Virus record (IMG/VR): IMGVR_UViG_3300045988_055482
Span: 1-58,139 of that record
Reading direction: 5' to 3' (one strand)
Source: a virus
DNA length: 58,139 nucleotides
The translations under genes were made by a program, and so were the position numbers. The notes beneath the pieces were generated by a model. The model was not told where the DNA came from. It searched no databases and saw only the letters and a list, made by a program, of their open reading frames with translations. Shown here in pieces: positions 2,953-36,810 of this stretch. The stretch's first letter is position 1. Every line of letters starts with the position of its first letter.

Positions 2953-5900
2953 TAAACATACCTCATTAACTTGTCTAGTCCAAACATACCATTTAGGTAT
3001 TGAGACTTATTGTCAATATTTTGACTAATTTGTGCGTTATTTGTGTTATATACATTGTTAATTATAGTTGATTTAGCAACACTTTGCAAGGCATTCACAC
3101 CAAACCTATTGAGGTTATTTAGGAAGTTAGTACCTAAACTATCAACAGCTTTCTTACGCAATACATATTCACCCGGAGTAAGCATAGTAGGCACAGTATC
3201 AGTGCCTTTTGGCTTCCAGTTAATCCCTACAGGAAGACCATTAGAGTGGTACTCAGGGATAAGCCCACCAGTGCTTTGGTAGATATTATCTCTTTCTTGC
3301 TCAGCTTGTCTTCTGTAGTTACTGAAAGCTCTTTGCTTAGCATTATTACCCTCAGCAGTAGCTTGAGCTACAGCCTCATCTAGTTTAGCTATAGTAGCAT
3401 CGATAGCCTTACGTGTTGCTGATTCAAGAGCTGTTATTCCTGCTGAGATACCTGCTGTAGCAATACCCGGAATATCTACTCCACCAATAATACCAGTACC
3501 TTCAAGGAATTTCTTCTGAGCATCTGATAGACCATTGGTAACAGAGAGTTTAAACTCATTGACACCATTCTTAAGACCTTCTGCGCTGACATCCTTGATA
3601 CCTGCTTTGTCAAGAAGAGCTTGACCTTCTTCAACCTTGAGTACACCATCTTTAATGAGCTTAGCTACACTTTCCTTAAAGGCATCAATTCTTACTTGAT
3701 TTTCCTCTGTTCTAGGTAGCTTAGACACAAAGTCAGCAGAATCCAGCATCTGGTTCAGTGTGTTAAGGTCATCCCACAGACCATTCTTAAGAATCTCAGT
3801 ATACTTAGTAGCAGTATCTCCAAGTTTCTCCTTAATGGATTCTGCAAGAGCTATAGTTTGTTGTTCTCTTGTTCCTCCTTGTAACTTACCTTGCTTAACA
3901 AGCTCAGTAGCCTTAGCAATTTGGTCAGAGACACTCATCTTCACAAACTCAGTTGTGTCAATTCCTGCCTTTTCTAATGCCTCTGTGATAGCCTTAGCCT
4001 TCTCACCATTGTTAGCAAAGTTTCTACTCTTAAGTACATTATCAATCTCATCTGAGATAGATGTAATATCCTTGAATAGGAAATCTACACCACTTTTAAC
4101 ACTAAGTTGTGCTTTGGTTAGTTGGGCTTTGTATGTATCAAGGTTAGCAGACTGCCTATTTGATTCCTCTTTTGTAAGAGTTTCTACAGCCTCAGCAACC
4201 TTGTTACCCTCACTATCCATAAACTCAACATATTTTTCACCAAGAGCAGATTTCACAAGTTGCAGTGATTGTAGAAGTCTAGCATCATCTTGAATACCAG
4301 ATGACTCTTTCAACTCTGACCAACTCTTAATCTTATCCCCAACCTTAACATAGAAATTCTCAATACCCTTAGGCACAGTTGCAGTCTTAATATTAAGGTC
4401 TCTTAGGGTAGATTCTAGGCTCTTACCTGTAGAGTTCTGTAATGAATCAATATAGGCACTTGCTGTAGAAAGACTCTTAGAGATACCACTACTTGAAGAA
4501 ATAGACTTGAAGAATGAGTTTCTAATATTGGCTGTTTCCTCAGCAAGTTGTTTCACAGAAGCCATATGACTTTCTAGTGTTTCTTTTGCTTGTACCTCAG
4601 CCTGTTTAGAAGCCTCTTCCTTAGCTAGTTTCTCTTGTCTAGCTCTTTCATCCTTCTGGTTATTAGCTCCTAGTATACCTGCAATAAATCCTGTAAGACC
4701 TCCAATACCTCCTCCTATAGCAGTACCAATACCGGGAATAAAGCTACCAATTCCTGCTCCTGTAAGTGCCCATGAGGCTGTATTACTTGCAATATTACCA
4801 AAATCTTTAAATCCTTGAGATTCATTTGAACCTTGTAGAGCATTGTTAGCTAAATCAAGACCAACTTGTGCCCCAAAGAAACCTAAGCCTTTCATATTAG
4901 CAGAATGTCTAGCATTATTTCTAGCAACTCTTGAGAACCCTGTAGTTGAGTTTTTAGCTACACGAGACATACCTGATAGATATGCTCCACCACTACCCAT
5001 GTTCCTTGAGGTAGTTCCTGCTCTCATAAGAGCATCAGAACCAAAAGCATTTGCTAGACCTAATGGGTTTACTTTACCACCACTCACAGCATTCATGGCA
5101 GTAGCCACAGTAGATAAACTATAGATAATATTAGTAGCCCATGATAGGAACTTAGTACCAATAAATCCTAGAATAAGGTACTTACCTAGTCCACCTAGAA
5201 GAGAAGCTACACCAGAGGCAAAGTTAGTCACAAGGGTAAAGAAGTCTAGTATCTTCTTAATACCACCCTCTACTGAATCACCAATAGAAACAAGAGTGCT
5301 CTTAATAGCTCCTGCAACAGCTTTTACAAAACCAATAACTGCTTGGAAGAATCTTTGTGCACTATTAGAAGCCAACGCAGAGATAGCTCCTTTGGCTAAT
5401 TCTACAATCAGAGGTTTAATACCCTCTACAATGCCCAGAATTGCGTTTCTTAGCCCCTCTAATGCTTTGTTTACTTGTCCTGCATTAAATGTACCAACTT
5501 GATTTACAATCGAGCTGAGAGCATCTATGACCCCTTTAAGAACGTTTGCAATTTCTTTGAAGATATTTGTTCTAGTAGCAATTTTAGTTACCACAGAAGA
5601 AACACTTTCCACAAAGTTCACAATAGAGTCAAATACACTCTTGAGAATGGATGGGTTTACAGACTTAATAATTGTATTGATTGCATTTGTGACACTTAGT
5701 AGTACATCAGTATATGCAGTAGCTCCTCCACTACTTACAGCTAGTTTAGCTAAGTTAGTATAGATGTCTACTACACCTCTAACTACTCTAGGGAATCCTG
5801 ATGTAATTAATTGAGTACCAATATCCACAATGCCCTTAGTAAGCTCTGATATGCTCTTCACAATTTCTTTTGTAGTAGTACCTAGCTCTCTACCTGTGGT

Positions 5901-20270: not shown

Positions 20271-20296
20271 TATCTTTACCTTTCCAATAAATCAAA

Positions 20297-20369
20297 TACA
20301 CCCTCCAAGACTTGAACTCGGAGTATAGGAGTAGAAATCCTATGTGTTATCCAGTTACACCAAGGGTGC
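20297..20369 (-). tRNA. tRNA-Arg (anticodon UCU)
   Basis: Hand-folded 73-nt cloverleaf: GCACCCT TG GTGT AACTGGATA ACAC A TAGGA TTTCTAC TCCTA TACT CCGAG TTCAAGT CTTGG AGGGTGT A. There is a G1-U72 wobble. Confidence 0.8.
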
Positions 20370-20426
20370 ATATGGTGGGTATAACCACCATTTAGTATTC
20401 ACAGAAATGTGATACCTATCAACCAA

Positions 20427-20469: not shown

Positions 20470-20542
20470 AGAGCGTAGAGGGATTCGAACCCCCGATAGC
20501 AAGGTTGCAGCTTGCGACCTTAGACCACTTGGCTATACGCTC
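20470..20542 (-). tRNA. tRNA-Cys (anticodon GCA)
   Basis: Hand-folded 73 nt: GAGCGTA TA GCCA AGTGGTCTA AGGT C GCAAG CTGCAAC CTTGC TATC GGGGG TTCGAAT CCCTC TACGCTC T. The U73 discriminator fits Cys identity. Confidence 0.85.
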
Positions 20543-21204
20543 AATATGAATGACTTAATCTCTTTACTCTTAATAGGTAAACCTCTTTTAGCTAACCACT
20601 TCCTATAGGCATTATCACTAATACCATACTTAGAAGCTAACTTTACAAGAGATTCTTTAGATAATAGGTCTTTGATAAGGTCTTCCCTAGTAGGTATATT
20701 CTTTGACTTTTCAGGTTTAAAACATTTAAGACATAGATTACCACTAGTTAAAACACCACAGATAGTACATTTATTCCTCTTGTTAGTCCACAAAGTAGAC
20801 TCTTTTGGAACATACTCTTCACCTTTGACGTACTTACTAGGAAGCATATCATTGTCAGTGATTCTGTAGTTAGACCTAGACCATTTTGTCAGTTCACCAG
20901 CTGTATTTATGTTATTCTGATTATCTTTAGGTGTAACCCTTCTGAGATTCAGATAATGATTATTCCGTTTATTACCATCAATATGGTCAATTTGTAGCCC
21001 ATCAGACTTATCAAAGTGACCTATATTTACCCAATAGCTTAGAAAATGAGCTGACCTATGAATAGTCTTACCGTTAACTCTAAGTCTATACATGGCATAA
21101 CCCCTTGTATTGATATAAGGCTTAAGTTTCTTAAGTCTATTACCAAATACACTGAATAACTCACCATACTCGTTTACAACATAATTTTCATTATAGTGAT
21201 ACAC
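20533..21204 (-). CDS. HNH homing endonuclease (free-standing)
   Basis: HIDGNKRNNHYLNLRRVTPKDNQNN motif, zinc ribbon CTICGV...CLKC, C-terminal HTH LASKYGISDNAYRKWLAKRG. GTG start. The last 10 nt, including the TAG stop, are the first 10 nt of tRNA-Cys. Confidence 0.85.
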   Translation of the reverse strand: MYHYNENYVVNEYGELFSVFGNRLKKLKPYINTRGYAMYRLRVNGKTIHRSAHFLSYWVNIGHFDKSDGLQIDHIDGNKRNNHYLNLRRVTPKDNQNNINTAGELTKWSRSNYRITDNDMLPSKYVKGEEYVPKESTLWTNKRNKCTICGVLTSGNLCLKCFKPEKSKNIPTREDLIKDLLSKESLVKLASKYGISDNAYRKWLAKRGLPIKSKEIKSFILSV

Positions 21205-33059: not shown

Positions 33060-33266
33060 ATGGCATTATTGACATTTGGTACAAACCCAAGAAAGAATAT
33101 GAGTTTAAGTTACAGAGATGTGATAGAACTAGATAAAATAGAGAAAGTCACAAAGCTCATGAAAACTCAATATGGTTCTGTGATGATATACTGTGGGCAA
33201 GAGATGAAAGGATTCTATAATGGAACGGTAGGGAGTCTTGTTAGAGGTTTGGGGTGGAGTAAATGA
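33060..33266 (+). CDS. Hypothetical small protein
   Basis: I prefer ATG 33060, which follows GGGGGT and lies after the upstream stop. ATGA overlap with the polymerase start. Confidence 0.5.
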   Translation: MALLTFGTNPRKNMSLSYRDVIELDKIEKVTKLMKTQYGSVMIYCGQEMKGFYNGTVGSLVRGLGWSK

Positions 33267-36200
33267 TTAATACTATAGACATCTCAAGACCTGTATGCTT
33301 GGATATTGAGACTACTGGACTAGATAGACACAGAAATGAGATTACCTCTATCCAGATTGGTTATACTCATATTGAAACAGGTGTATACACAAGAAAGTTC
33401 TTTGATTGGGTTAAACTAGGAACTAAAAGGCAAAGAGCACTTCTCAGAAAGCTCAAAGAGTGTAAGTTAGTAACTCATAATGGGAAGTTTGACTTGCTTT
33501 TCCTTTATGTTAAGACAGGTATAGAGCTTAAGTTATGGATTGACACTCTTGTGCTTGCTCATGTGTGTGGAGAGGAAGAGCTTGGTCTTAAACCTTTAAC
33601 AGAGAAGTATTTTCATGTTAAGTATGATATTGCGAAGGAAGCTAAGGTAGGTAAAATCACAGAAGCATTCAAGGCTTATGGTCTTGATGATGTTCTGTAT
33701 CCAATGAAACTATTGAAGATTTTCCAAAAGAAAATTGCACGCTATGACTTGCTTAAGGTGTTCAAGCATGAAATGAGAGCTTATAAAGCTTATTATGAAA
33801 TTGAAAAAGGAGGAGTTCCCATAAGTCCTAGAAGACATGAGGTACTTGAAAAACTCCAAAAAGACCTGAAACCTTACACAGAGAAACTATTGACTTATGG
33901 GGATATTAACTGGAACTCTAATGCACAAGTAGCAAGTATTCTCTTTGCACCTAAAGATGAACCAGTTTATGATGAACAAGGTGAGAGATTACCTAATACT
34001 TATGCTGTAGTAGATGTTAAGGGTAAGGTTATTGCTGAGTTTAATGAACGTAAAGAAGCCAATGCTCACAAGAAAGAACATGGTATTGATGGAAAAGTCA
34101 AGATTGTTAAGCATTATCTTCCTGTGGTTATTGGTTATGGTCAAGGACTTGAAGTAATTGAACGTACAAAATCTGGTGCACCTTCTGTTGGTGTAGATAC
34201 TCTTGCTAACTATGTGGGAAATGATTGTGTAGATACCTTGCTTGAATATAAACGTATATCTAAATTGATTACCTTTATTGAGTCATGGGAAGAGCTTCAA
34301 GTAGATGGTAAAATATATCCTAGTTTTAATATCACAGCTAGGACAGGAAGGACAACCTGTAATAACCCGAACCTTAGAAACGCTGGGGGTTCGTTAAACC
34401 CTGTGAAAACGGTGAACGCTGAGATGCCAACACCGTGTCAAGCCTAGTTGAGATACTAGGAAGATGTAACGACTAAGAAATGCCTGGAGCAGAGTAACAC
34501 GAGCGCAGGGATTGGTTAAATACCAATATGAGATAGTCTGAACTTGTGGGAATTGAACCACAAGAACTATAGGATAAAGAGCCTATAGGATAACATGGCA
34601 TGTCAGCAATGTCCACAAGATAGTTATGTTAGAAACCTTATTGAAGCTAGACCCGGTTGGAAGCATTGTGAAGTGGACTTCAGCCAGTTAGAACTACGTG
34701 TAGCTAGTTGGTTGTCTGGTGACATAAATATGCAACATGCTTATCAATCAGGTAGTGACTTGCATAGTAAGACTACAGAGCTCCTTTTTGGTGATACTAG
34801 TGAGCTAAGTCATGATGAGCAGAAGAGATTAAGAACTAACTCTAAGGCCTGTTTTAGTGGAGATACTGAAATTCTTACTATGAATGGATTTATACCTTTT
34901 AGTGAGTATGATGGTGTAACCCCTGTGGCTCAAGTAGATAGAGATACACTAAGTATGGATTTTGTTAAACCTCTAGCATTTAAGTGTATACCTAATCAGG
35001 AGGTTATGGAGCATTGTGATGCTAATGTGTCTATAAAGTGTACTTTAAATCATAGATACTGGTTGCTTAGAAATAAAACTAAGTCTGAGGTAGGTGAGTT
35101 CAAAGACTTGAAATTACTAGGTGATTCTAAATTAAGTTGGGTTAAAGGTGCATATTTAGATTTTAAACCTAAATTAAGTGTAGATGAGACTAGGTTTTTA
35201 TGTATGTGTGTATCTGATGGGCATTTTATAGAGAACAAAACAGTTCATAATGCTGTAACTTTTACTTTTAGGAAAAAGAGAAAGTTTGATAGATGTATCT
35301 CTATACTTAATTCTCTTAATTTACCCCACAATGCAACGTATAGAGATAACTATAGACATTATGTAGTCTATGTGTATAGTAATAAACTAATAGATTTACT
35401 GTACAAGTATACAACTAAGGATAAAAACCTTATATGGGATAATATACATGATATAGACTTTAATGCTTATGTTGAAGAATGCTTGTATTGGGATGGTCAT
35501 TATACTGAGAATAAAGGGGCTAATTTCTTTACTACTCAAGAGCAAACCTCTGATGTAATGCAGTATATGTTTTTTGTACTTGGGATAAAGGTAAATAAAG
35601 CTGTACATCATGATAAGAGGGGTGGAAGGTCTACTGGTTATAGACTTAATATACCTATGACTAGGGGAAGAAACCATTTATGTAGAATGTTACCCTCAAA
35701 AATAGATATATCAGTAAAATCTATTGAGGATGTCTACTGTGTACAAGTACCAAAAGATACAATAGTTTTAAGACGAAACGGTAAAATAGTAGTTTTACCT
35801 AATTGTAACTTTGGGTTCCTCTATGGTATGGTAGCAAAGACTTTCCAAAAGTACGCTATCGGATATGGTCTAGACCTTACACAAGAGGATAGTGAGAAAA
35901 TCCGTGCTGATTTCTTTAAAGCCTACCCTAGATTGCTTGTGTGGCATGAAGAGTGTAAGGAATTTGCTAGACAACATGGCTATATAGAATCGCCTATTGG
36001 AAGAAAAAGATGGTTTGACAACATTAATAGCAGAGACTTTAGAAAGCGTTCTGCTGATGAAAGACAAGCTATCAACTCACCAGTACAAGGATTTGGTTCA
36101 GACTTGTGTACTAGTGCCTTAGCTGATATTGTTTTCAGTAAAGAGCTAGACCACACAAGATTCAATGTACTAGGCTCTGTGCATGATGCAATTCTCTTTG

Positions 36201-36340
36201 AGATAATGGATGATTATGTAGAAGAACTAGTGCCTAAGTTAAAATATATGATGGAACACCCCTCTATTATTGATGGTATGGATGTACCTATACCTCTTAT
36301 AGCAGATGTGGAGGTTTCTCAATCATGGGGAGGACATTAA
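33263..36340 (+). CDS. Family A (Pol I-type) DNA polymerase with 3'-5' exonuclease domain, interrupted by an intron and an intein
   Basis: Exo I CLDIETTGL and Exo II NGKFDLLFL. TGRTTCNNPNL | QQCPQ rejoins across 34375-34602. Motif A is VDFSQLELRV. Motif B, RTNSKA|C|NFGFLYG, is split by the intein. Motif C is SVHDAI. Proposed mature coding: 33263-34374 + 34603-34849 + 35804-36340. Confidence 0.85.
34375..34602 (+). mobile_element. ORF-less group-I-like intron (about 228 nt) in the polymerase gene
   Basis: Exon 1 ends in U and the intron ends in G. An internal guide candidate GGGGTT (34386-34391) pairs with exon AACCTT. Multiple hairpins: acggtg/caccgt, cctagt/actagg, attggt/accaat, cttgtgg/ccacaag, ctatagg/cctatag. 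Boundaries are good to 1 nt either way. Confidence 0.6.
34850..35803 (+). mobile_element. Intein (318 aa) with a LAGLIDADG homing endonuclease domain, in Pol motif B
   Basis: Starts CFSGDTEILT. Block B is CTLNH. Dodecapeptide-like FLCMCVSDGHF and VEECLYWDGHY. Ends IVVLPN followed by the +1 Cys of CNFGFLYG. Confidence 0.8.
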
Positions 36341-36810
36341 TGCACCTATATGATAAACCTGCATACTTGAAGAGTAAATATCAGCTATTAAGACAACTTA
36401 ATAGAGAGTGCTTCCAAGCTGACCCTGAGAAGTATTGCAGAGAACAGATTGACTATGACCCTAACTATGAATTAGGTGTTGATGGTCAAGAATATGTAAT
36501 GGGTAAATTTATAAAAGGTATCCGATACTTGAATAGAACATACAAGCTAAAACTACCACAGTTTCCTAGCTATGATGAGATGTATAAGCTAAACTTTAGA
36601 CTTCCTGCTAAGATAGACTTTGCTGTGAAGTATATGGTTGCTACTACTCATTTAAAAACTCAGTATGTTTCACATAATATAGCATTTACCTATGCTGTGA
36701 GTGATACCAATGAGAGATTGGTTATCCATTATCCTAGACAAACACAAGATATGATTGACTATGCTAGATTCATTATAGCTAATGGGTATAGAGAATATGT
36801 ACGCAGTTGA
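36340..36810 (+). CDS. Hypothetical protein
   Basis: ATG 36340 overlaps the polymerase stop (TAATG), 6 nt after GGAGGA. Confidence 0.6.
   Translation: MHLYDKPAYLKSKYQLLRQLNRECFQADPEKYCREQIDYDPNYELGVDGQEYVMGKFIKGIRYLNRTYKLKLPQFPSYDEMYKLNFRLPAKIDFAVKYMVATTHLKTQYVSHNIAFTYAVSDTNERLVIHYPRQTQDMIDYARFIIANGYREYVRS

Follow-up and report, generated by a model that had tools for sequence, protein, structure and literature searches.

The closest annotated counterpart of the element described here is the intein of Lactococcus phage KSY1 (NC_009817), whose gp096 is annotated as 'intein-containing DNA polymerase I'. The element itself is a 318-codon insert in the DNA polymerase I gene (polA) of an uncultured phage, IMG/VR record IMGVR_UViG_3300045988_055482, which was analysed over its whole length of 58,139 nucleotides (the window). 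Both inserts lie in motif B of PolA at the identical insertion point, and the junctions of the KSY1 intein read TIAKA|CFSGDTEILT...VYCVNVP...VSIQGN|CNFSLLYG. The two align from the first residue to the last (26% identity, E 5e-23 by BLASTP) and share CFSGDTEILT, T-x-x-H, VYCVxVP and a Cys at position +1; their host polymerases are 33% identical. The KSY1 intein ends in Gln-Gly-Asn, the norm in the family, while that of the window ends in Leu-Pro-Asn. The KSY1 copy (L003, 1274-3961) is also without both Asp-Gly pairs of the LAGLIDADG motifs (...FTTRYGQT and ...FKDFGHL), and its endonuclease is therefore probably dead, unlike that of the window, which keeps both pairs. By its sequence the window insert is a LAGLIDADG intein, the same-site orthologue of a known one, and it is read here, with a probability of about 0.82, as functional and mobile, a HINT domain into which a single-chain LAGLIDADG homing endonuclease is set, within the O-helix of a family A polymerase.

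The sole characterised relative is AceL NrdHF-1-1 (PDB code 6zgq), an intein of phage origin that is naturally split, has no endonuclease domain and resides in NrdF. It has been proven to follow the class 3 route, with Ala1 at its N-terminus and Cys124 at position F:4 as the essential branch point (Hoffmann et al. 2020, PMC7891396). It has Met rather than Trp at B:12, lacks both histidines of the C-terminal site, ends in Thr-Gly-Asn and splices fast with this Gly-Asn ending; Arg69 forms a hydrogen bond to the C-terminal scissile carbonyl, R69A slows splicing, and G145H, predicted to clash with Arg69, abolishes activity (PMC7891396). The window intein and its family share with it (S/T)65-x-x-H68-R69, a hydrophobic residue other than Trp at B:12, a Cys at F:4 followed by ..VP.., and the lack of both the block-F and the penultimate His. 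The positions of blocks B and F map one to one between the two inteins (the window residues being Thr65, His68, Arg69, Tyr70, Cys297 and Pro301, followed at the C-terminus by Leu316, Pro317 and Asn318), with Cys297 aligned to Cys124 and Arg69 to Arg69 of AceL. In place of Ala1, Thr144-Gly145-Asn146 and Ser+1, the window has Cys1, Leu-Pro-Asn and Cys+1, and its PolA intein is in one piece and includes a LAGLIDADG domain. Compared directly, the two sequences match weakly and in the N-terminal half only (E 5e-4). A profile of endonuclease-deleted family members, searched against the PDB, found 6zgq as the best match over the entire splicing domain (E 8.9e-16), with the Mja KlbA (2e-5) and Spl DnaX (4e-5) inteins far behind.

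A preliminary description of this DNA had placed the insert at 34850-35803, 318 residues, which is exact to the base, and Cys1, TxxH, the two dodecapeptide motifs, the C-terminal Asn and Cys+1, all listed there, are present in the translation. The 318 codons are free of stops and run from CFSGDTEILT to RNGKIVVLPN, and the codon directly after them, 35804-35806, encodes Cys+1. These 954 nucleotides lie within the open reading frame (ORF) 34595-36340, whose flanks match Pfam DNA_pol_A (1.1e-47). The insert is built as follows:

34850-35803, plus strand: intein of 318 residues (Cys1 to Asn318), a HINT splicing domain split by a LAGLIDADG domain, as read from the translation, the empty alleles, the BLASTP alignment with KSY1 and the Foldseek matches
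34850-34879, plus strand: block A, CFSGDTEILT, with the putative N-terminal nucleophile Cys1 at 34850-34852; its ten residues are invariant among the same-site inteins
35030-35065, plus strand: block B, SIKCTLNHRYWL, with Thr65 (B:7), His68 (B:10), Arg69 (B:11) and Tyr70 (B:12), the TxxH motif T65-L-N-H68 being encoded at 35042-35053
35165-35704, plus strand: LAGLIDADG homing-endonuclease domain, about residues 106-285 with approximate limits, supported by Asp-Gly conservation, the I-DmoI Foldseek match and dN/dS; dodecapeptide motif 1, RFLCMCVSDGHF, is at 35192-35227 and motif 2, YVEECLYWDGHY, at 35468-35503
35729-35776, plus strand: block F, DVYCVQVPKDTIVLRR, with Cys297 at F:4 (35738-35740), a Cys in 196 of 198 family copies and aligned with Cys124 of AceL
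35783-35806, plus strand: block G, KIVVLPN plus Cys+1 (translation), with Leu316 (G:5), Pro317 (G:6, 35798-35800), Asn318 (G:7, 35801-35803) and Cys+1 (35804-35806)

Seven polymerases with an insert at this very point came out of a search of 5.8 billion proteins. Two of these inserts are 78-79% identical to that of the window and end in VVLPN, three are 31% identical and end in SIQGN, and two are 31-32% identical and end in TILPQ. In the eight-sequence alignment of the window insert with these same-site relatives, Cys1 and all of CFSGDTEILT, Thr65, His68, Asp123-Gly124, Asp215-Gly216 and Val-Tyr-Cys-Val 295-298 are invariant. Of 1.84 billion representative proteins, the profile of this alignment matched 7999 at E<=1e-3, of which 184 reached E<=1e-30. 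The matching segments sit inside large unrelated host proteins, namely ribonucleotide reductase (RNR), helicases, P-loop proteins and PolA, and their junctions fall in known motifs (PolA motifs, DE|CH helicase boxes, P-loops and RNR). A tblastn search of GenBank phages likewise found RNR, primase/helicase, RtcB and other genes of Staphylococcus, T5-like, Vibrio and Bacillus phages, with E values down to 9e-14 for the RNR inteins. The KSY1 orthologue and the family profile, together with the fold matches given below, bear out the view of the preliminary description that this is a LAGLIDADG intein in Pol motif B. A six-frame search of the window for a second intein of the family found none.

The family was characterised from about 190 intein copies in the 150 best representatives, aligned to the profile. 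Its signature is C-[FYLV]-x-x-D-T-E-[IV]-L-T...T-x-x-H-[R]-[M/V/I/L]...V-Y-C-V-x-V-P-x-G...R-R-N-G-K-x-x-[IV]-[T/S/Q]-G-N, followed by C/S/T at +1; copies end in N or Q. Position A:1 is Cys in 183/183 aligned copies, B:7 is Thr or Ser and B:10 is His in all 196, and F:4 is Cys in 196/198. One further PolA intein at the same site (P0102, residues 72-385) ends ...VSIQGP|CNFGFIYG, its terminal Asn replaced by Pro; a terminal Pro cannot cyclise, and either the copy is dead or the sequencing is at fault.

The host gene is interrupted twice and is arranged as follows:

33263-34374, plus strand: polA exon 1, encoding the 3'-5' exonuclease domain and the N-terminal part of the polymerase domain (Pfam DNA_pol_A_exo1 4.9e-15, DNA_pol_A 4.6e-9)
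34375-34602, plus strand: group I intron (Rfam RF00028) of 228 nt, without an ORF, splitting polA at NPNL|QQCPQD; its ends could shift by 1 nt (shared T)
34603-34849, plus strand: N-extein in exon 2, QQCPQD...DFSQLELRV (motif A)...RLRTNSKA (first half of motif B), matching Pfam DNA_pol_A and positions 261-504 of contig L087 at 83%
35804-36340, plus strand: C-extein, which opens with the latter half of motif B (CNFGFLYG), contains motif C and ends at the stop codon, matching Pfam DNA_pol_A at 1.1e-47 and positions 510-1060 of L087 at 84%

Excision of the insert in silico gives ...RLRTNSKA-CNFGFLYG and restores PolA motif B, as had been proposed. The prediction is borne out by intein-less relatives, in which this motif reads RTNSKS-CNFG[FY]LYG (P0013, P0016) or RRTQSKS-ANFGFLYG (P0009, P0010, P0012), and by L087, a short contig with an uninterrupted polA. 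The latter aligns with the window in three blocks at 83-86% nucleotide identity (16-248 with 34130-34362, 261-504 with 34603-34846 and 510-1060 with 35806-36356), relative to which the window has two insertions, the 228-nt intron and the 954-nt insert. The intein site is filled in the window and in relatives L001, L005 and L006; it is empty in L087, in P0009-P0016 and in L004, a phage of the same synteny group whose empty site reads AAGAGT|GCTAAC and whose exon-2 product (P0012) is 93% identical to the window exteins. The empty-site sequence of L004 and L087 is ...TCTAAGAGT|GCTAACTTTGG... Alleles 87-93% identical to the window lack the insert, which rules out that it is a non-intein domain conserved in this clade of polymerases, the case that the preliminary description had named as refuting its proposal. 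In the numbering of E. coli Pol I, the insertion point lies between the equivalents of Ala759 and Ile760, in the O-helix (R-x-x-x-K-A|x-N-F-G-x-x-Y-G). An unspliced precursor cannot be an active polymerase, because the insert splits this helix.

The +1 residue of intein-less alleles varies, being Cys in P0013 and P0016 and Ala, Thr or Met in P0009, P0010, P0012, P0021 and P0027. A Cys at this position may have been left behind by a lost intein or by co-conversion in the course of homing. Without the intron and the intein, the mature polA has 632 codons (631 residues plus stop); in every relative looked at, gene callers have broken polA into fragments.

The fold of the insert resembles that of the standard class 1 LAGLIDADG inteins. 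An AlphaFold (AF2) model built from the same-site alignment (pLDDT 68, pTM 0.54) matched TliVMA best in a Foldseek search of the PDB (E 5e-11), followed by PI-SceI and PI-PfuI (to 1e-7; probability 1.00 for all three), and it also matched the free-standing endonuclease I-DmoI (E 1.5e-7, target TM about 0.6). The HINT fold is indicated as well by the endonuclease-deleted family profile, which found 6zgq and the KlbA, DnaX, RadA, DnaE and RecA inteins. With PI-SceI (Sce VMA1), PI-PfuI and Tli VMA the window intein shares the HINT fold with a two-motif LAGLIDADG domain, Cys1, T-x-x-H, the terminal Asn, Cys+1 and a site in a conserved active-site motif; these inteins have Asp at F:4 and a His-Asn end, of which the window has neither, and sequence identity to them is 11-15%. 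Each LAGLIDADG motif of the window ends in an acidic residue and Gly (...VSD123G124 and ...YWD215G216), and these pairs are near-invariant among family copies (Asp in 177 and 182, Gly in 173 and 155). Asp123 and Asp215 are presumed to be the catalytic residues. A LAGLIDADG_3 domain is on record for the same-site relatives P0003-P0005.

Comparison of the window intein with the copy in L001 (P0001) gives a synonymous divergence (dS) of 0.82 and an overall dN/dS of 0.149. The ratio is 0.12 in the N-terminal and 0.18 in the C-terminal HINT part and 0.15 in the endonuclease domain, which indicates purifying selection on all of these parts. Leu-Pro-Asn, encoded by TTA CCT AAT, closes both copies.

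The trees of inteins and exteins disagree. The window and P0003 are 93% identical in their exteins and 33% in their inteins, the window and P0006 91% and 35%, and P0003 and P0006 96% and 43%; the window and P0001 show the reverse, 71% in the exteins and 79% in the inteins. The same is seen in the nucleotide sequence, where the window and L001 are 81% identical in the intein and 68% in the adjacent C-extein. Thus polymerases that are 91-96% identical carry at one site three intein types, of which that of the window is 31-35% identical to the other two, and empty alleles occur beside them; the three types end in Gly-Asn, Pro-Asn and Pro-Gln. At 29-33% G+C, the intein is slightly poorer in G+C than the exteins, which have 36-39%. 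This pattern suggests repeated horizontal exchange or replacement of inteins at the site. Together with the intact catalytic Asp residues under purifying selection, the discordance points to an active homing endonuclease. The endonuclease would cut polA alleles without an intein in co-infecting relatives, and the intein would be copied in during repair; cutting and repair copying of this kind would explain how three very different inteins came to occupy one site in nearly identical polymerases.

Splicing can be pictured in the following way. The first thioester with the N-extein would form at Cys1 or at Cys297, and the proposal commits itself to initiation at Cys1. Cys297 would stand in for the usual F:4 Asp as an essential helper or relay, the acyl group would pass to Cys+1, Asn318 would cyclise and release the intein, and an S-to-N shift would restore ...TNSKA-CNFGFLYG... 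Cyclisation is most likely assisted by Arg69 (B:11), as in AceL NrdHF.

The preliminary description had drawn attention to the C-terminal dipeptide, with a penultimate Pro in place of the usual His. Pro317 is indeed there, but His is the wrong benchmark: in the family, G:6 is Gly in 170/181 copies, Pro in 3, one or two each are Gln, Lys, Cys, Ser or Met, and none is His. G:7 is Asn in 162 copies and Gln in at least 9, and G:5, Leu316 in the window, is Thr in 71, Ser in 44 and Gln in 34. As judged from these counts, the family has abandoned the His altogether, and the peculiarity of the window clade is the change of Gly to Pro. Asn cyclisation needs no penultimate His, since the whole family lacks it. 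Phage inteins often lack this His and yet splice fully (PMC5050341). In mycobacteriophage class 1 inteins without it, found like that of the window in phage proteins of DNA metabolism, it is replaced by Gly, Lys or Ser, where the window has Pro; they splice completely (for example Bethlehem's gp51 RDF intein, whose ending is Gly-Asn; Kelley et al. 2016, PMC5050341), and splicing is slower when the His is put back (PMC5050341).

The three Pro cases are the window type (Pro-Asn), the same-site P0006 type (Pro-Gln) and P0184 (Pro-Gln), an unrelated PolA intein at a PN|CQN site. A scan of 80 family loci in IMG/VR found 67 with Gly-Asn, 6 with Pro-Gln and 4 with Lys-Asn, three being not aligned to their ends, and none with Pro-Asn. 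The window, P0001, P0002 and the fragment P0008 are the only known carriers of the Pro-Asn type, and another type, present in 6 IMG/VR phage genomes, has Leu/Ile-Pro-Gln as a fixed ending. Pro317 would appear to be a tolerated substitute for the family Gly, one that does not disable the intein.

Several observations weigh against the insert being a functional, mobile intein. Curated hidden Markov models (HMMs) barely register it on its own, with scores near noise for Pfam LAGLIDADG_3 (E 0.066, in spite of the domain recorded for P0003-P0005) and NCBIfam intein_Nterm (E 0.12), and the identification therefore came from relatives. The AF2 model is mediocre, with residues 56-61, 66-104 (most of block B) and 271-289 below pLDDT 50. 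The rarity of Pro in the family leaves room for reduced or conditional Asn cyclisation, two of the three penultimate-Pro cases end in Gln instead of Asn, and a literature search found no description of a penultimate Pro in inteins. The role of Cys297 in members that keep Cys1 is putative, and splicing, endonuclease activity and homing are all read from sequence. Among other searches with the insert, PHROGs gave a sole match, to a 'PhoH-like' family (E 1.5e-4) that presumably contains an intein-bearing member, and phmmer with the single sequence found no meaningful match in the PDB.

The F:4 position raises the question of the splicing class. F:4 is Asp in standard inteins, and a Cys there is a hallmark of class 3 (PMC2807308, PMC4031507). 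A Cys at F:4 in an intein that also has Cys1 is, on these alignments, a more unusual feature than the Pro-Asn ending, and it had been missed in the preliminary description. The classical class 3 inteins with the Trp-Cys-Thr (WCT) triplet, such as MP-Be DnaB and Msm DnaBi1, share with the window the Cys at F:4, and a phage origin has been proposed for them (PMC2807308, PMC4031507). They have no N-terminal nucleophile, Trp at B:12, Thr at G:5, a His-Asn ending and mostly Ser or Thr at +1 (PMC2807308), and the window has none of these traits. Membership in classical class 3 is rejected, as the window departs from it at three of the four diagnostic positions (Cys1 is present, Tyr70 is not Trp and Leu316 is not Thr). 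The class 1 signature is present in part: Cys1, TxxH and the C-terminal Asn with Cys+1 are there, and the penultimate His and the F:4 Asp, common in that class though not obligatory, are missing.

It is possible, if doubtful, that the window intein nevertheless splices by a class 3-type route, with Cys1 dispensable or otherwise used. The F:4 Cys is as invariant in the family as Cys1, and AceL NrdHF agrees with the family signature at B:12 (M/V/I/L) and in its (T/S/Q)-G-N ending; an AceL fragment also shares 35-36% identity (E about 1e-14) with members that have Cys1, including one that occupies the same NrdF RDE| site. Members with Ala1 (P0237, P0222) are nested among those with Cys1, which indicates that the family can work without this residue. 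Tori and Perler are said to have described in 2011 that some inteins with the WCT triplet keep Ser1 or Cys1 yet splice by the class 3 route. On the other side, the conservation of Cys1 in every aligned copy, along with an intact T-x-x-H, is what would be expected if Cys1 were used, and P0131 and P0144 keep Cys1 with Ser or Gly at F:4. The window further departs from class 3 in Tyr70 (B:12 is M/V/I/L/C in the family), Leu316 and Cys+1, and the classical class 3 DnaB inteins are absent from the PDB matches of the family profile at E<=0.1. Initiation at Cys1 is for these reasons the preferred course, even though the family as a whole seems, by its sequences, able to run on either nucleophile.

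The full-length P0237 (residues 523-829) has Ala1 and shares the NrdF RDE| site with AceL NrdHF and several Cys1 members, to each of which it is about 34% identical, which suggests that Cys1 was lost within an orthologous group. In P0176 (53-370, then 371 onward) and P0222 (553-875, then 876 onward) two family inteins stand back to back, PNDLH|...GN|C[YL]..DTEILT; the upstream copy is without Cys1, having Lys or Ala in its place, and Cys1 of the downstream copy serves as its +1 residue.

A tentative extension of the two-cysteine arrangement, one that is rather improbable as it stands, treats inteins with Cys1, Cys F:4 and a (Gly/Pro)-(Asn/Gln) end as a large phage-borne lineage in which both cysteines are catalytic, either in a relay from Cys1 through Cys297 to Cys+1 or with either one able to start. 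If true, this redundancy would let members lose Cys1 and turn class 3-type, as AceL NrdHF and P0237 at NrdF, independently of the WCT clade, and the Pro-Asn and Pro-Gln endings would represent continued drift of an active site at the C-terminus from which His catalysis has gone.

It is unlikely that the intein is attenuated or conditional, as the preliminary description had wondered, with Pro317 slowing the cyclisation of Asn318 and the delayed maturation of the polymerase acting as a post-translational brake. The scarcity of Pro at the penultimate position (3/181) speaks for such a brake, and so does the ability of the penultimate residue to tune the splicing rate of phage inteins either way (PMC5050341). 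The three cysteines of the catalytic site (Cys1, Cys297 and Cys+1) could in principle make splicing redox-sensitive, as is reported for the Msm DnaB intein (PMC6195587). Against this, Leu-Pro-Asn has been kept between copies at dS 0.82 with dN/dS of 0.15-0.18, the Leu/Ile-Pro-Gln ending is fixed in its own type, and the insert breaks an essential active-site helix. A slow-maturing replicase would be costly to a phage, and no compensating second polymerase was noticed in the window, where no systematic search was made for one. Attenuation is thus probably not what Pro317 signifies, and a quantitative effect of the residue on splicing rate is possible.

That the insert does not work as an intein at all, being either the decayed relic of one in a polymerase gene that is broken or a non-splicing domain native to the polymerase clade, is very improbable: the weak scores of the curated intein HMMs, the Gly-Pro end of P0102, which may be dead, and the loss of both Asp-Gly motifs in KSY1 would fit such a relic, but the reading frame is uninterrupted and retains every splice residue and both LAGLIDADG Asp residues, dN/dS is 0.15, close alleles lack the insert and relatives occur in many unrelated proteins. 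A pseudogene was rejected on the same dN/dS.

With the functional and mobile intein as the preferred reading, what was known already is the intein family and its insertion site, and what is new is a member with the rare substitution of the penultimate Gly by Pro. The arrangement of Cys1 with a Cys at F:4 is mechanistically interesting and only partly explored. Its presence in common with an experimentally class 3 relative bears on the origin of class 3 splicing, and the locus as a whole is a natural experiment for homing, intein replacement and Asn/Gln cyclisation without His. A compact intein that tolerates Pro beside the scissile Asn may be of interest to protein engineers, and for annotation the removal of intron and intein yields one polA gene. 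The principles known about inteins are unchanged by these findings.

The intron lies in the same gene as the intein, as had been stated, and ends 247 nt before the intein starts. Exon 1 ends ...TTCNNPNL and exon 2 resumes QQCPQD. In a local scan of 601 nt it matches Rfam Intron_gpI (RF00028) with 40.6 bits (E 6e-9), and the 228-nt block is absent from L087, P0009 and P0085. A whole-window Rfam scan did not report it, because 40.6 bits does not reach the gathering score of 50. The Rfam alignment places its first stem in exon 1 (34319-34343), probably spuriously. Four relatives (L001, L004, L005 and L006) are interrupted at the same polA codon by introns that differ. L005 has the intron of the window, L006 a third one (4694-4900), and L001 (5093-5821) and L004 (4121-4858) a longer one with a LAGLIDADG ORF of about 243 residues (Pfam E 1.8e-8 and 9.4e-7); this one splice site hosts at least three intron variants.

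A third homing gene had been placed at the tRNA locus, and one does adjoin tRNA-Cys there:

20533-21204, minus strand: ORF of 223 residues, HNH_3 endonuclease (Pfam E 1.2e-7)

It is probably a free-standing homing endonuclease. The end of the ORF and tRNA-Cys(gca) have about 10 nt in common, and tRNA-Arg(tct) follows just downstream, the tRNAs lying at 20296-20370 and 20470-20542 on the minus strand. To call the phage a hotspot for homing elements, as the preliminary description did, is fair, but the trait is not special to it: L001, L004, L005 and L006 have introns at the same codon, and most have an intein here or at motif A. Dense loads of introns and inteins have already been described in gut phages (PMC7886860). 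The phage belongs to an uncultured kind of about 58-60 kb, and the contig of one relative is labelled as human gut metagenome. No close cultured relative was found, as megablast with the polA region gave only a 33-nt chance match among 50,697 phage records, and the best PolA among phages by tblastn is that of KSY1 (33%).

Inteins of the same family occur in related phages at a second polA site, immediately ahead of the motif A catalytic Asp (E|C-D-[LYF]-S-Q-x-E-L-R-V), in P0029, P0054 and P0075 and in L033-L035, L042-L047 and L054 (match at 3001-3960); the intein of P0054 ends in Cys-Gln. Further intein sites in PolA of other phages are NFG[VI]|CYEQ, with a Lys-Asn ending, PN|CQN and NLQN|C (PN(L/I/F)QN|), represented by L048, L049, L052 and L082 (match at 3001-3912/3954), L061, P0163, P0219 and P0244. 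The NLQN|C motif, occupied by an intein in those phages, is the one at which the window has its intron.

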